Below, in pieces: positions 1,321 to 5,635 of a stretch of DNA of 5,635 nt (position 1 is its first letter; each line of letters starts with the position of its first letter). The stretch is taken from the IMG/VR virus record IMGVR_UViG_2645727901_000019; one strand, 5' to 3'. The notes under the pieces were generated by a model. The model searched no databases. It was not told where the DNA came from and saw nothing but the letters and a program-made list of their open reading frames with translations. The translations under genes and the position numbers were made by a program. Origin of the DNA: a virus. Its lineage: Duplodnaviria > Heunggongvirae > Uroviricota > Caudoviricetes.

Positions 1321-1823
1321 GCATCAGAACCTACGCAGTGAATTGCAATGACGCATGGCTAAACACCGAAGGTGATGACATCTCCGGCTCATACGTTAAG
1401 TACAAAGACCATCAGGAAGTGGTTGCCGCTCTTGAGGCCAAGTGCGCGGCGCTGGCAGCGGAGAATGCGGGAATAAAGTCTGCAATTCCAGAATCACGGG
1501 ATATTGAAGATGACAATGACAATATGGATGACGTATCTCTCGCGGAAGACTTCGGGTTCAATCATGCAATAGAACGGATGAGGAGACAGATACCTGAAAC
1601 GCCAACCACTGATGCTTTCCTGGCTGAAGTCCGGGCGCAGGGGGTGGATGCTGCTATAGAAGCTGCAAAAAATCTGGTGGCCCAAGAATATGAGTATAAG
1701 GATTTCAAAGCGGCGCAGAGTGATTGCTGTATGTACCCTGGTTCAGACCTGGTAGGGAAGGTTGAAATGACTGAGTGGTTAGTTGACTTTGCTGCCCAGC
1801 TTCGCAAAGGAGGCAACCAGTGA
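1317..1823 (+). CDS. Hypothetical protein (168 aa); possibly the displaced C-terminal part of an Ea22-like gene
   Basis: ATG 1317 overlaps the upstream TGA (ATGA); GGGAGAG SD 7 nt upstream. The segment HQEVVAALEAKCAALAAEN resembles PETVLALLDERERN in the 1820-2305 paralogue. Stop TGA 1821-1823 overlaps the next GTG start (GTGA). Confidence 0.6.
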   Translation: MSIRTYAVNCNDAWLNTEGDDISGSYVKYKDHQEVVAALEAKCAALAAENAGIKSAIPESRDIEDDNDNMDDVSLAEDFGFNHAIERMRRQIPETPTTDAFLAEVRAQGVDAAIEAAKNLVAQEYEYKDFKAAQSDCCMYPGSDLVGKVEMTEWLVDFAAQLRKGGNQ

Positions 1824-1862
1824 GCGAAATTAATTACCAGGCACTGCGTGAGGTGGCGGAAC
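1804..1862 (+). repeat. Direct repeat copy B (59 bp), paralogous to 1119-1177
   Basis: Same alignment as copy A. AAGGAGG and the GTG start are at identical relative positions in both copies. Confidence 0.85.
1807..1813 (+). promoter_or_regulatory. Consensus Shine-Dalgarno AAGGAGG for GTG start at 1820
   Basis: Perfect AAGGAGG with 6-nt spacing to GTG; paralogous to the site at 1122-1128. Confidence 0.65.
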
Positions 1863-2305
1863 GTGCAATTCCAGCAATGGAACGCCTGTTAATGTTGCCA
1901 GCTGATGATGACTTGTTAAGTGAACAGGAACTTAAAGATTACGGTGTGGATATTGATGCGCTCAACGCCTTCAAATTTCTGACCGGACCAGAAACCGTGC
2001 TGGCACTGCTGGATGAACGGGAAAGAAACCTGCAATACATCAAAAGCCGCGATCAGGAGAACGAGGATATTGCGCTAACGGTAGGGAAGCTGCGCGTTGA
2101 GCTTGAAGCAGAAAAACAGCGGGCAAAAGTTCTATTTATGGAAAATGCTCGGCTTAAGTCAGGCATAGCCGGTCTGATACACCTCGGTATTCGATATGCA
2201 GATGTTGAGGTCATGAAAATTGCTGGAGATGCCCAGCTTTCTACCCCATGCACTGACAGCATCATAAACAGCATTGCAACAGGCATTCGCATCAAAGGAG
2301 AGTGA
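1820..2305 (+). CDS. ead/Ea22-like family protein (161 aa) with a coiled-coil-like centre
   Basis: GTG 1820 sits 6 nt after AAGGAGG (1807-1813). N-terminus MSEINYQALREVAERA and internal PETVLALLDERE match my recollection of lambdoid-prophage Ea22-like proteins. Heptad-like charged stretch KLRVELEAEKQRAKVLFMENARLK. Stop TGA 2303-2305. Confidence 0.75.
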   Translation: MSEINYQALREVAERAIPAMERLLMLPADDDLLSEQELKDYGVDIDALNAFKFLTGPETVLALLDERERNLQYIKSRDQENEDIALTVGKLRVELEAEKQRAKVLFMENARLKSGIAGLIHLGIRYADVEVMKIAGDAQLSTPCTDSIINSIATGIRIKGE

Positions 2306-2822: not shown

Positions 2823-3577
2823 TCACTATTACCAAAGGGCGACTGCTGACAATCAAGCAGTGGCGCGAAACATACGGACCGGGTAGCAACGTTGTACTGC
2901 CAGCAGAAGAAGCGGAAGAACTGGCACGAATTGCACTGGTATCGCTGGAAGCAGAGCCGGTGGCAAAGATTATAGCTCATTACCCATTAGGAGTTGACGT
3001 AGGCAAACAAAAGTTCGTACAGGCCATTGGAGAGCTTCCTGACTTTGGCGGATATCTATTTGCCGCCCCGCCAGCGCCGGTAGTGCCGGAAGAAGCAACT
3101 CCGGAAAACGTAGAAATGCTCTCTGGCTATGTTTCCACGTACAAATTAACCGATAGCGAGCGCGATATTGCTGCCGAAATATGGAACGCCTGCCGCACCG
3201 CCATGCTTCAGTCCGGAAACTTTCGGGAAAGCAAGAATTCGTCAACCAATAATTTTCGGGAAATCCCGGAAGCGTCAACCAGCTCTCCGGTAACTCCGGC
3301 TCTTCTGCCTGGTGGTTTCACCATTGAGGAGGCGAAGGAATTACATGAAGACCTGGTACGCAGCCACATAAGCAAGGCCTTAAGTGGCGAAAAGATGAAA
3401 AAGAAAGATCGCGATGCTGATTTGCGCTGGATTCATGGCGTTATAGTTCAGGCAGCGTGGTTTGTAAAAGCATCACTGGAGCAGAATGCACTATCGGGCA
3501 ACTCTCCGGTAACTCCGGATGGTTGGATAAGCTGTAGTGAGCGAATGCCGGACGACAGGCAGGAGGTGAATCAATGA
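2819..3577 (+). CDS. Hypothetical prophage protein (252 aa) with an internal repeat-rich linker; ends just after a PDGWISCSERMPDD motif
   Basis: ATG 2819 overlaps the upstream TGA (ATGA); GAAGGAAA SD. Contains a 33-bp tandem repeat (FRESKNSSTNN / FREIPEASTSS) and a 17-bp perfect direct repeat in frame 219 bp apart. The C-terminal motif resembles, from memory, the start of a DUF551-type prophage domain. Stop TGA 3575-3577. Confidence 0.7.
   Translation: MITITKGRLLTIKQWRETYGPGSNVVLPAEEAEELARIALVSLEAEPVAKIIAHYPLGVDVGKQKFVQAIGELPDFGGYLFAAPPAPVVPEEATPENVEMLSGYVSTYKLTDSERDIAAEIWNACRTAMLQSGNFRESKNSSTNNFREIPEASTSSPVTPALLPGGFTIEEAKELHEDLVRSHISKALSGEKMKKKDRDADLRWIHGVIVQAAWFVKASLEQNALSGNSPVTPDGWISCSERMPDDRQEVNQ
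3221..3286 (+). repeat. Imperfect 33-bp tandem repeat (2 units) inside the 2819-3577 CDS
   Basis: TTTCGGGAAA recurs at 3221 and 3254 and CGTCAACCA at 3240 and 3273, both with period 33 bp (in frame, 11 codons). Confidence 0.6.
3283..3299 (+). repeat. 17-bp perfect direct repeat, copy 1 (CTCTCCGGTAACTCCGG)
   Basis: Identical 17-mer recurs at 3502-3518, 219 bp (73 codons) downstream in the same frame of the same CDS; flanking bases differ on both sides. Confidence 0.9.
3502..3518 (+). repeat. 17-bp perfect direct repeat, copy 2 (CTCTCCGGTAACTCCGG)
   Basis: See copy 1. Encodes SPVTP in both places (SSPVTPALLPGG vs NSPVTPDGW). Confidence 0.9.
3561..3568 (+). promoter_or_regulatory. Strong Shine-Dalgarno AGGAGGTG for the 27-codon peptide gene
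   Basis: AGGAGGTG lies 5 nt upstream of ATG 3574, inside the last codons of the preceding CDS. Confidence 0.55.
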
Positions 3578-3657
3578 GCTGGCCTGATGCAATCGTAACT
3601 CTGGGGGTGGTATTCGCAGCAGCGTTTGTTGTGTTCTCGATTTGTCGATGGGGATAA
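3574..3657 (+). CDS. Small hydrophobic single-helix peptide (27 aa), not in the supplied ORF track
   Basis: ATG 3574 overlaps the upstream TGA (ATGA); AGGAGGTG (3561-3568) lies 5 nt upstream. Translation MSWPDAIVTLGVVFAAAFVVFSICRWG, stop TAA 3655-3657. Fills the gap between two coupled genes exactly. Confidence 0.45.
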   Translation: MSWPDAIVTLGVVFAAAFVVFSICRWG

Positions 3658-3661
3658 CCAC

Positions 3662-3904
3662 ATGTTCGCTTTGATTCAACGCGGTCAGATATACACGGAC
3701 AGAGCTGGATACCCCGTGGTGATTACTCGCATCACTGAGCACTCAGTGTTCTTTCGACGGATGGACGGACGATCCGGGCGGGTACGCATTGGTGAGTTAA
3801 ACTGCCTGTTCGAACATATTGACCACCAGGAGTACCGCAAAATTCTCGCGGACACTGAGCAGGAAAAGCACCTGAAAAAATTACGAGCCATAAAAAGGAA
3901 GTAA
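3662..3904 (+). CDS. Small hypothetical prophage protein (80 aa)
   Basis: ATG 3662 lies 4 nt after the peptide stop; GGGGA upstream. Translation MFALIQRGQIYTDRAGYPVVITRITEHSVFFRRMDGRSGRVRIGELNCLFEHIDHQEYRK... Possibly a DUF4222-like small prophage protein (recollection only). ORF-track start 3626 is TTG without an SD. Confidence 0.6.
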   Translation: MFALIQRGQIYTDRAGYPVVITRITEHSVFFRRMDGRSGRVRIGELNCLFEHIDHQEYRKILADTEQEKHLKKLRAIKRK

Positions 3905-3907
3905 AGA

Positions 3908-4042
3908 ATGAATAAAGCATTTGAACGATGGGTCCACCAACGTTACGGCAATCGCTATGACCTGACGCGAGATGTTGACGGCTTCTACTGTCGTGAAGTT
4001 GTGAAGCGAATGTTTGAAGTGTGGTGCCACTGCCGTGGATGA
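3908..4042 (+). CDS. Small Cys/His-containing protein (44 aa), unknown function
   Basis: ATG 3908 with AAGGAAG SD (3895-3901), 3 nt after the upstream TAA. Translation MNKAFERWVHQRYGNRYDLTRDVDGFYCREVVKRMFEVWCHCRG; stop TGA 4040-4042. Below the ORF-track size cut-off. Confidence 0.45.
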   Translation: MNKAFERWVHQRYGNRYDLTRDVDGFYCREVVKRMFEVWCHCRG

Positions 4043-4060: not shown

Positions 4061-4315
4061 ATGCAGACAATCATCTATCAGATAACCCCCAGCAAATGGT
4101 GTACGGAGAGAGTCCTCATTGCATCAACAGGGCTAAAGCCTGGCACCATTGAGCGGGCAAGAAGAAAGTCATGGATGCAGGGAAAAGAATACCGCCATTA
4201 CGCTGTAGAAGGTGATCCGGGGCACTACAGTGAATGCCTGTACAACATCGAAGAAATTATGCGATGGATCGAAAACCAGAAACAACCAGGTGCCAAAAAT
4301 GCAAGTTCCGGTTAA
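4061..4315 (+). CDS. Excisionase-like protein (84 aa; recombination directionality factor candidate)
   Basis: Small basic protein immediately upstream of the integrase on the same strand. Translation ITPSKWCTERVLIASTGLKPGTIERARRKSWMQGKEYRHYAVEG...YNIEEIMRWIE matches my recollection of enterobacterial prophage excisionase-like proteins (DUF1233-type). GAGG 5 nt upstream of ATG 4061. Confidence 0.65.
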   Translation: MQTIIYQITPSKWCTERVLIASTGLKPGTIERARRKSWMQGKEYRHYAVEGDPGHYSECLYNIEEIMRWIENQKQPGAKNASSG

Positions 4316-4348: not shown

Positions 4349-5635
4349 ATGAGTAACGCATCATACCCGACAGGCGTTGAAAACCATGGAGGATCACTCC
4401 GTATATGGTTTCACTATAATGGCAAACGTGTCAGAGAAAACCTCGGTGTTCCTGACACAGCCAAAAACCGGAAGATCGCTGGTGAACTTCGCACTTCCGT
4501 TTGTTTTGCAATCAGAATGGGGAGTTTCGACTACGCCGCGCAGTTCCCTAATTCCCCTAACCTGAAACACTTTGGTCTGGGAAAAAGAGAGATAACCGTT
4601 AAGGCACTTTCGGAAAAATGGTTGGACCTTAAGAAAATTGAGATTTGTGCGAATGCACTTAATCGTTACCAGTCAGTAATTAAAAACATGTTGCCTATGT
4701 TGGGTGAGAAAAAACTGGTTTCATCCATAACAAAAGAGGATTTACTTTTCGCAAGGAGAGATTTGTTGACCGGTTACCAAAAGCTTTCTAATGGAAAGAT
4801 TTCTTCCATAAAAGGGCGCTCAGTGGTCACAGTAAACTACTATATGACAACCATAGCTGGAATGTTTCAATTTGCAACAGATAATGGTTATACCTCAGGA
4901 AACCCATTTAACGGTCTGGCACCCTTAAAAAAGTCCAAGGTAAAACCAGATCCTCTCACCCGTGACGAATTTATTCGTTTTATTGAAGCTTGCCGTCATC
5001 AACAAACAAAAAACCTGTGGATTCTCGCTGTATACACGGGTATTCGTCACGGGGAGCTGGTATCGCTGGCATGGGAAGATATAGATCTTAAAGCAAGGAC
5101 TATAACCATCCGTAGGAATTATACAAAACTTGGCGAATTCACTCCACCAAAAACCGATGCTGGCACCGGAAGGACAATTCATCTGGTTCAACCAGCTATT
5201 GATGCTCTTAAAAGTCAGGCGGAAATGACCATGCTTGGAAAGCAACATTCTGTAGAGGTAAAGCAGAGGGAATATGGGAGAAGTACTGTGCATAAATGCA
5301 CTTTTGTTTTTAGTCCTCAGGTAATAAAACAGCGGCAGTTTTCCGGACCGCACTATAAGGTTGACTCCATCAGGGAGTCATGGACAAGTATCTTAAAACG
5401 CGCAGGTCTGAGACACAGAAAATCGTACCAATCCAGGCATACTTATGCATGCTGGTCACTTGCCGCTGGAGCTAATCCTAGTTTTATCGCAAGCCAGATG
5501 GGCCACACAAACGCACAAATGGTATTCAATGTTTACGGAGCATGGATGAAAGACAACAATCACGAACAGATAGAACTCCTTAACAAAAGACTATCTGAAA
5601 GTGTCCCATGTATGCCCCATAAGAAAGCTGGGTAA
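4349..5635 (+). CDS. int: Tyrosine site-specific recombinase / phage integrase (428 aa)
   Basis: GGGAGG SD 5 nt upstream of ATG 4349. Catalytic-domain signatures: box I Arg in TGIRHGELVSLAWEDIDL, Lys in PPKTDAGTGRTIHL, box II YQSRHTYACWSL, then GHTNAQMVFNVYGAW with the tyrosine nucleophile. N-terminal ~70 aa resemble an arm-binding domain. Stop TAA is the last codon of the window. Confidence 0.95.
   Translation: MSNASYPTGVENHGGSLRIWFHYNGKRVRENLGVPDTAKNRKIAGELRTSVCFAIRMGSFDYAAQFPNSPNLKHFGLGKREITVKALSEKWLDLKKIEICANALNRYQSVIKNMLPMLGEKKLVSSITKEDLLFARRDLLTGYQKLSNGKISSIKGRSVVTVNYYMTTIAGMFQFATDNGYTSGNPFNGLAPLKKSKVKPDPLTRDEFIRFIEACRHQQTKNLWILAVYTGIRHGELVSLAWEDIDLKARTITIRRNYTKLGEFTPPKTDAGTGRTIHLVQPAIDALKSQAEMTMLGKQHSVEVKQREYGRSTVHKCTFVFSPQVIKQRQFSGPHYKVDSIRESWTSILKRAGLRHRKSYQSRHTYACWSLAAGANPSFIASQMGHTNAQMVFNVYGAWMKDNNHEQIELLNKRLSESVPCMPHKKAG

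Follow-up and report, generated by a model that had tools for sequence, protein, structure and literature searches.

A widespread, unannotated 27-codon gene of Escherichia coli phages and prophages, predicted to encode a single-helix membrane protein

The small genes of the early-left or exo-xis region of lambdoid phages are non-essential, mosaic and host-directed. Their products are to our knowledge soluble or peripheral, and we know of none that is a bare transmembrane helix. Bovine papillomavirus E5, a protein of 44 amino acids (aa), has little beyond a transmembrane helix, and acts by packing against the helix of a membrane protein of its host. Type I toxins (Hok/Gef, Ldr, Ibs, ShoB, TisB, DinQ, ZorO) are very small hydrophobic membrane peptides that are often borne by prophages or plasmids. 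A further group comprises KdpF (29 aa), MgtS (31 aa), PmrR (29 aa), CydX (37 aa), AcrZ (49 aa) and MgrB (47 aa); proteins of this type act by binding a larger membrane protein (PMC12648545). Here we describe a 27-codon gene in a 5,635-nucleotide (nt) stretch of DNA from a virus of the Caudoviricetes (IMG/VR record IMGVR_UViG_2645727901_000019), which we call the window in its full length. An earlier reading of the letters of the window, made without database searches (the sequence-only reading), had proposed this gene as an unannotated source of a hydrophobic peptide.

The 27-residue product shares several properties with the regulators of the KdpF type. It is similar in size (below 50 aa), has one predicted transmembrane helix with few flanking residues, was missed by gene callers, is under purifying selection, and is conserved mainly at residues of one helix face and of the membrane interfaces, the conserved face being suggestive but unspecific. 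It differs from these regulators in that it has no Pfam or NCBIfam similarity, is phage-borne, mobile and multi-copy instead of chromosomal, and has no obvious adjacent partner gene. With the type I toxins it has in common that it is a very small hydrophobic peptide with one predicted helix, while an antisense RNA at the locus, a translation block, a promoter of its own and membership in a described toxin family were not found. The early-left genes of lambdoid phages (lambda kil, cIII, orf60a/61/63 and ea8.5; Rac kilR) occupy the same neighbourhood and presumably have the same expression timing, but their proteins have no homology to the peptide. E5 provides an analogy of mechanism only, since it is eukaryotic-viral, unrelated in sequence, and dimerises via cysteines. 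Finally, ECs_5710 of E. coli O157:H7 Sakai, also known as XECs145, likewise has an acidic N-terminal end, one transmembrane helix, an Arg near the C-terminal end and a strong Shine-Dalgarno (SD) sequence, and it too was originally missed. It belongs to a different sequence family, has 34 aa, and now carries a RefSeq accession, which the 27-aa gene still lacks. The 27-residue peptide therefore represents an undescribed family among phage and bacterial single-helix microproteins, and not a new kind of system.

The window taken alone says little about the reality of the gene. An AGGAGG-N3-9-ATG motif occurs once against 0.43 expected, and shuffling produced at least one such motif in 69 of 200 cases. 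Moreover, the window contains 93 open reading frames (ORFs) of at least 20 aa. The observation in the single sequence is therefore not significant by itself, and the case for the 27-codon ORF rests on comparison with relatives. Homologues were collected by anchoring on the DUF4222 gene, by a DNA pattern scan of viral contigs, by tblastn of phage and plasmid records, and by a metagenome scan. The final tally required a loose N-terminal anchor only, which was applied to all collected DNA. It contained 291 copies of exactly 27 codons, among which there were 77 different DNA sequences and 48 different peptides. The sources were phages, prophages, phage-plasmids and gut metagenomes. At the loci that were anchored on the DUF4222 gene alone, the ORF was present upstream in 87 of 87 cases and intact in 86, and the frame was intact in all 80 metagenome loci. 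Strongly diverged alleles were found among the DUF4222-anchored loci (MSWPDAIVTLGVVFAAAFVVFSICRWG, the allele of the window; M-MNWPEAFTAVGVAIAVAFILYSLFRWG; MTWPEALTTVGIAMAVALVVYSICRWG). In-frame length variants of 24, 25, 29 and 30 aa were encountered once each. The rare variants included a 6-nt duplication (29 aa, L218), a 6-nt deletion accompanied by P4S (25 aa, L219) and a 9-nt deletion in SJ46 (24 aa, L215).

The pattern of substitutions is that of a protein-coding gene. Column entropy at codon positions 1, 2 and 3 was 0.40, 0.29 and 0.85, respectively. The pairwise ratio of non-synonymous to synonymous differences (pN/pS), computed over the 18 codons left free by the search pattern, was 0.43 in the sense frame, compared with 0.74 and 1.64 in the other frames of the sense strand. 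In codons 7-27, a minimum spanning tree of the 77 sequences contained 126 changes that were synonymous and 109 that were not, whereas a synonymous fraction of 0.26 was expected (binomial p = 5e-19, omega about 0.31). The commonest peptide is encoded, without any amino acid change, by many distinct DNA sequences, and replacements are mostly conservative exchanges of hydrophobic residues (I/V, A/V, L/M, F/L, F/Y). M1, W3, A6 and W26 never vary among the 48 distinct peptides. Of these peptides, 47 have P4, C24 or R25 (each counted separately), 46 have G11 or A15, 44 have A17, I23 or G27, and 43 have S22.

Two of the checks that the sequence-only reading had put forward are thereby answered. The comparison of synonymous with non-synonymous changes across relatives revealed purifying selection, and the search for disrupted frames left the gene standing, with 291 intact copies and 3 frameshifted ones. 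Since frame, length, start codon, ribosome-binding site and ATGA overlap are kept across the 77 DNA versions together with an excess of synonymous changes, the proposal of a genuine peptide gene has held up. We conclude that the 27-codon frame is very probably a real protein-coding gene.

The expression signals of the gene are as constant as its frame. An ATGA start and a GGAGG-type motif at SD distance were present in 207 of 207 copies, whatever the upstream gene, and in 189 of these copies the start of the small gene overlapped the stop codon of an upstream ORF that was 50 aa or longer. Deviating junctions are TAATG in place of ATGA in SJ46, and a type (L213) in which the small ORF starts 35 nt downstream of the stop codon of the upstream gene. 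The C-terminal regions of the upstream proteins are of at least 6 unrelated kinds. Upstream genes encode full-length DUF551, truncated DUF551 behind three different N-terminal parts, Ea22-like proteins, the coiled-coil protein of 933W, EaA and others. Unrelated upstream proteins (those of L088, L089, L214 and others) nevertheless share a tail of the type QEVNQ*, QEVNR* or GMNQ*, which in the window is encoded at 3559-3577, because their final codons and stop codon are the SD sequence and the ATGA of the small gene. In the window, the last 5 codons and the stop codon of the upstream gene are supplied in this way. Judged by these sequences, the cassette rewrites the C-terminus of any gene that it lands behind.

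Downstream sequences are variable as well, and are of at least 5 kinds. In 134 distinct contexts, the downstream neighbour was DUF4222 in 64, hok/sok in about 30, and a second small membrane ORF in about 11, and differing intrinsic-terminator hairpins followed the stop codon in about 18. The 27-codon gene is often the final gene of an operon, and it is independent of the neighbours that it has in the window. The variability on both sides identifies the SD sequence, the ATGA and the 27 codons as the mobile unit. The coordinates of the gene, its signals and its neighbours are listed in Table 1. The start codon, the near-consensus SD sequence and the ATGA overlap are read directly in the DNA, as the sequence-only reading had stated. 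Its remark that the ORF exactly fills the gap to the next gene was essentially right, except that 4 nt remain before the DUF4222 start codon.

Table 1. Positions of the 27-codon gene, its expression signals and neighbouring genes in the window, and of ECs_5710 in E. coli O157:H7 Sakai
Feature	Position	Strand	Details
27-codon microprotein gene	3574..3657	+	ATG 3574-3576, TAA 3655-3657; product MSWPDAIVTLGVVFAAAFVVFSICRWG
Shine-Dalgarno sequence AGGAGGTG	3561..3568	+	5-nt spacer AATCA before the ATG; within the final codons of the upstream gene (Q-E-V)
ATGA start/stop overlap with upstream gene	3574..3577	+	upstream TGA at 3575-3577; signal for termination-reinitiation coupling
Predicted transmembrane core, residues 6-24 (AIVTLGVVFAAAFVVFSIC)	3589..3645	+	between W3 and W26
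GxxxA motif	G11 at 3604-3606, A15 at 3616-3618	+	within the transmembrane core
Upstream gene, Ea22-region protein with truncated DUF551 tail, 252 aa	2819..3577	+	matches Pfam DUF551 profile positions 1-16 of 68 only
Downstream DUF4222 gene	3662..3904	+	ATG at 3662, after a 4-nt gap following the stop codon of the 27-codon ORF
Likely DUF4222 ribosome-binding site GGGGA	3650-3654	+	inside the last codons of the 27-codon ORF
Ea22-like gene	1820..2305		family scan
Gene without family match, 171 aa	2307..2822		no Pfam family
44-aa ORF	3908..4042		between the DUF4222 gene and xis
Excisionase gene	4061..4315		family scan
Integrase gene	4349..5635		family scan
ECs_5710, 34 aa, MSDDISLAMEGALAVIAVVGVYCLVVFLMDRLGN	L214 1663-1767 = NC_002695.2 1550962-1551066		strong SD; 35 nt past the 27-codon homologue; about 11 contexts

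The window comes from a lambdoid prophage that is inserted beside mlrA/yohO in E. coli, and covers the end of this prophage near the attachment site. The genes of the window all have the same orientation and lie close together, several of them overlapping by ATGA. By synteny with lambda, the gene run towards xis and int is inferred to be the distal part of the early-left transcript. No promoter-like or terminator-like sites were found in or adjoining the 27-codon ORF in the window, and a scan of the whole window against Rfam returned no family at E <= 1. The predicted fold of the messenger RNA (mRNA) at 3540-3680 was no more stable than that of shuffled sequences (z = -0.11). On the grounds that there is no Rfam match, no stable fold and no promoter or terminator, we rejected the explanation of this region as an RNA element.

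Experimental data that bear indirectly on expression are available for a homologue in prophage Sp6 of E. coli O157:H7 Sakai (NC_002695.2 1550843-1550926, MIWPEAFAITGVAIAIDFLVYVICRWG). It follows a DUF551 gene with an ATGA overlap, and is itself followed by the 34-aa membrane ORF ECs_5710 and then by mokC/hokC. Hücker et al. (2017) analysed by ribosome profiling (Ribo-seq) only intergenic ORFs of at least 30 aa (PMC5597208). For one of these, XECs145, they reported, in one uninduced condition, 79 reads per kilobase per million (RPKM) in the transcriptome and 346 RPKM in the translatome, a ribosome coverage value of 4.35 and a coverage of 0.99 (PMC5597208). XECs145 spans the last 22 nt of the 27-codon homologue, the spacer and ECs_5710. 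The data show that the Sp6 locus is transcribed and ribosome-bound in the lysogen, and the near-complete coverage upstream of ECs_5710 is compatible with ribosomes that finish the 27-codon ORF. In K-12, the Rac and Qin prophages contain no homologue (DLP12, e14 and the other K-12 prophages were outside the search), and published start-site profiling of those two K-12 prophages therefore cannot settle translation.

The product is with good confidence a membrane helix, in agreement with the sequence-only reading, which had described it as essentially one transmembrane helix. For the allele of the window, the apparent insertion free energy (dGapp) on the Hessa scale, summed over residues 6-24, is -1.85, and the grand average of hydropathy (GRAVY) is 1.46. 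Other alleles have dGapp values of -0.9 to +1.6 on what is a crude, position-independent scale. The 27 residues appear to be organized into a short, acidic cap at the N-terminus (M-x-W-P-(E/D)-A), a core of about 19 mostly hydrophobic positions, and a C-R-W-G tail. The helix, capped by the proline, would span the bilayer between interfacial W3 and W26, which are 23 residues apart. As a helix, this spacing corresponds to about 34 A and matches the two membrane interfaces. The lone basic residue, the Arg near the C-terminus, would favour an orientation with the N-terminus out and the C-terminus in. Efficient translation may be expected from the near-consensus SD sequence in conjunction with termination-reinitiation at the ATGA, both of which are observed features whose use we infer.

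A GxxxA motif and, more broadly, a stripe of small residues (G11, A15, A17) may form a helix-packing face. The peptide has no soluble domain and would not protrude from the membrane, so that any action would take place within the bilayer. As, in addition, a helix face and end motifs are under selection, the peptide most likely acts by helix-helix binding in the inner membrane. It would bind a conserved host protein or, less likely, a phage membrane protein, and modulate the activity of this partner during phage development or lysogeny. The partner is probably not encoded next to the gene, because the neighbouring genes vary. On balance, and with moderate confidence, we favour the explanation that the gene encodes a translationally coupled, Trp-flanked single-pass inner-membrane microprotein that would act by helix packing with a membrane partner. 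That it would be a partner-binding modulator rather than a membrane-damaging toxin is a claim to which we assign about an even chance.

Several points weigh against this explanation. What is said of the GxxxA motif and the Trp anchors is structure deduced from sequence, and an omega of about 0.3 is moderate constraint only. The collection needed parts of the N-terminal motif, the C-terminal motif or both, so that badly decayed copies would be under-sampled, and frameshifted copies do exist (L073/L087 on one contig, with an additional G; L217, with one C less; and P0004). One frameshift lies in the G-run of codons 10-12, a likely hotspot for sequencing or replication slippage. The Ribo-seq signal in Sakai belongs mostly to ECs_5710, and concerns another allele than that of the window. 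Lastly, the antisense frame that shares the wobble positions has a pN/pS of 0.37 and is open in 57 of 58 variants. Its openness can be attributed to the scarcity of Tyr, His and Gln codons in a transmembrane helix, and its low pN/pS to the shared wobble positions.

Foremost among the alternatives, the peptide might damage membranes, depolarising or permeabilising the inner membrane in the manner of a type I toxin or of Kil. Its size and hydrophobicity are within the range of ShoB, DinQ, TisB and Ibs, the gene often lies directly upstream of hok/sok or beside toxin-antitoxin genes, and the early-left accessory location is where the kil functions of lambdoid phages reside. The regulation expected of such toxins was not observed. 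No promoter-like site on the minus strand was found over 3574-3657 in a consensus scan, which does not fully exclude an RNA of a novel type, no Rfam RNA was detected, and the mRNA fold described above shows no notable structure by which the ribosome-binding site would be occluded. The strong exposed SD sequence and the coupling to the upstream gene are the opposite of the tight translational repression of type I toxins. Furthermore, the gene has no locus of its own, the peptide is not homologous to Hok, Ldr or any other family of toxins, genomes tolerate as many as 7 copies, and the Sp6 locus is apparently ribosome-bound in healthy, uninduced cultures. We therefore consider a membrane-damaging toxin unlikely.

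A role in lysis finds no support in the context either. Holins and antiholins are encoded in the lysis cassette beside endolysin and spanin genes, have a charged cytoplasmic tail after their transmembrane domains, and often have dual starts. There is no lysis cassette at these loci. The gene lies among an Ea22/DUF551-type gene, DUF4222, xis and int in the window, and next to hok/sok or terminators in other phages. The C-terminal tail consists of R-W-G only, and there is a single start codon except for an MM variant in one allele. Thus, the type I toxin-like and holin-modulating roles that the sequence-only reading had offered are disfavoured by the context, because an antisense RNA or promoter and a lysis cassette were not found and because the ribosome-binding site is strong and exposed. 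Its other suggestions, that the peptide regulates a partner protein or is an exclusion factor, may apply.

It is improbable that the peptide is functionless and that the frame is kept merely as a relay, which would pass ribosomes on to the following gene or protect the transcript against Rho or decay. The universal ATGA coupling, the stop codon 4 nt before the DUF4222 start and the likely DUF4222 SD sequence in the last codons of the ORF would suit such a role. However, peptide, length and C-R-W-G end are also kept in front of terminators or of separately promoted hok/sok, where there is nothing to relay to, and the constraint concerns amino acid identity beyond mere openness of the frame.

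Still less probable is that the helix serves as a C-terminal membrane anchor, which the upstream protein would acquire when ribosomes shift frame at the overlap. In prfB, for example, frameshifting can be stimulated by an SD-like element shortly ahead of a stop codon, and a few database proteins are upstream fusions (P0005, P0008). There is, however, no slippery heptamer at the junction, the ATG and SD sequence of the ORF itself are invariant, the frame relation varies between the ATGA, SJ46 and L213 types of junction, and the upstream proteins are mutually unrelated. A chance open frame, or a real gene on the minus strand (a 30-aa ORF at 3571..3663), can be dismissed almost completely in spite of the open antisense frame and of an SD-ATG motif that is within chance in the window, as the sense start, stop, length and SD sequence are kept in every context, whereas the antisense ORF, which we rejected as a by-product, has a region-spanning start codon in no more than 49 of 106 contexts and lacks a start codon altogether in 37.

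The helix-packing microprotein that we favour has escaped annotation almost entirely. The sequence-only reading had noted that the gene was too short for gene callers and missing from the ORF list, and it is indeed absent from RefSeq/PGAP and GenBank for identical or related DNA. The window allele was found in 182 E. coli genomes. In a sample of 60 spread over these genomes, there was no feature under the match in all but six. The exceptions that were inspected (H162 and H186) represent one genomic context, in which the frame extends upstream by another 13 open codons and the PGAP annotation has a 40-aa "hypothetical protein" (WP_021501359.1). This 40-aa form, used as a query, retrieved 4 entries among 5.8 billion proteins, and an exhaustive HMMER scan of 1.84 billion representative proteins retrieved 7 entries. 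The database entries are N- or C-terminally extended, fused or frameshifted forms of the 27-codon ORF, with the exception of P0006, an unrelated multi-helix protein.

Searches of Pfam, PHROGs, NCBIfam, PADLOC and the PDB returned no credible match for the peptide. A hit of the YYZ-2008 allele to phrog_35838 (E = 0.085) was treated as noise, and a profile search of the PDB, which gave pilin helices only (E > 3), was rejected. The peptide and its neighbours had no match at E <= 1 to the PADLOC models of defence systems. Full-text literature searches for the peptide strings found nothing relevant, and the supplements of the "Cryptic bacterial microproteome" preprint contained no match to the peptide. 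The gene was missed because it is below the length cut-offs of gene callers and of the relevant Ribo-seq study.

The distribution of the gene is nevertheless broad. Of 5426 complete E. coli genomes, 1634 contained DNA of the commonest allele group, at up to 7 copies each. Roughly one in three complete genomes of E. coli thus has the gene, often more than once, while annotation and protein-family libraries lack it. It is carried by the reference Shiga-toxin (Stx) phages 933W, VT1-Sakai and VT2-Sakai, in which it is also unannotated (58832-58909 in 933W, directly upstream of hokW/sokW), and by ArgO145, YYZ-2008 and BP-4795. About 226 plasmid records contain the gene. They are mostly about 90-120 kb in size and non-mobilizable, and from size and typing they are mostly taken to be phage-plasmids. 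Further carriers are the virulent Vequintavirinae TH18 and Av-05, and P1-like SJ46 has the 24-aa form. A tblastn search with that form as the query gave no matches, and says nothing about P1 itself.

The gene thus provides an example of a phage microprotein with strong expression signals, purifying selection, and a cassette structure that brings its own ribosome-binding site. Only tentatively do we suggest that it is a portable phage effector, whose Trp-anchored helix binds and switches one conserved host inner-membrane machine. The target of such an effector may be a component of the divisome, a protease or insertase of the membrane, or a sugar transporter or channel through which the DNA of competing phages enters. 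If this is true, the effector, made in some lysogens as the Ribo-seq signal at Sakai Sp6 hints, would be a very widespread, unrecognised factor of lysogenic conversion or exclusion in pathogenic E. coli, including strains with Stx phages. If a host membrane protein is targeted, the peptide would be a new effector in the phage-host biology of pathogenic E. coli. Otherwise, the result is a correction of annotation that touches thousands of genomes.

Some observations concern the surroundings of the gene. The tail of the upstream gene in the window (3521-3577) reads ...PDGWISCSERMPDD followed by RQEVNQ*, and the DUF551 core is missing in frame in comparison with YYZ-2008, which has a full DUF551 (L001 2375..2737). 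The same truncated tail occurs behind three different N-terminal parts in other contigs, and the truncation has thus spread by recombination. In 933W (L088 1585-1950), in L093 and in about 30 other loci, hok/sok starts immediately after the stop codon of the small ORF, so that read-through transcription of the small gene would continue into hok. A promoter-like sequence (TTTGCG-17-TAGAAT) was noted by eye only.

In the large virulent phages vB_EcoM_TH18 (L089, 27935-28015) and Av-05, EaA lies upstream and an ea22-like gene downstream of the small gene. An "ea" accessory block has therefore passed between temperate and virulent phages. In a record labelled "Actinobacillus phage vB_Apl-pPE4" (L090, PP818812.1), the small gene, hok and the flanks are near-identical to those of E. 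coli phage ArgO145. The Actinobacillus pleuropneumoniae host label looks doubtful, or the phage looks to be of E. coli origin.

Two other genes of the window also deserve mention. The 171-aa ORF, which was compared with L002 2408-2923, is intact in the window and in phage PhiR5_1, and in strain 2012EL-2448 RefSeq has a frameshifted pseudogene and a separate hypothetical protein in its place. The 44-aa ORF that separates the DUF4222 gene from xis has a match to phrog_3871 (E = 2e-32) and to no Pfam or NCBIfam family, and represents another conserved small gene of this block.

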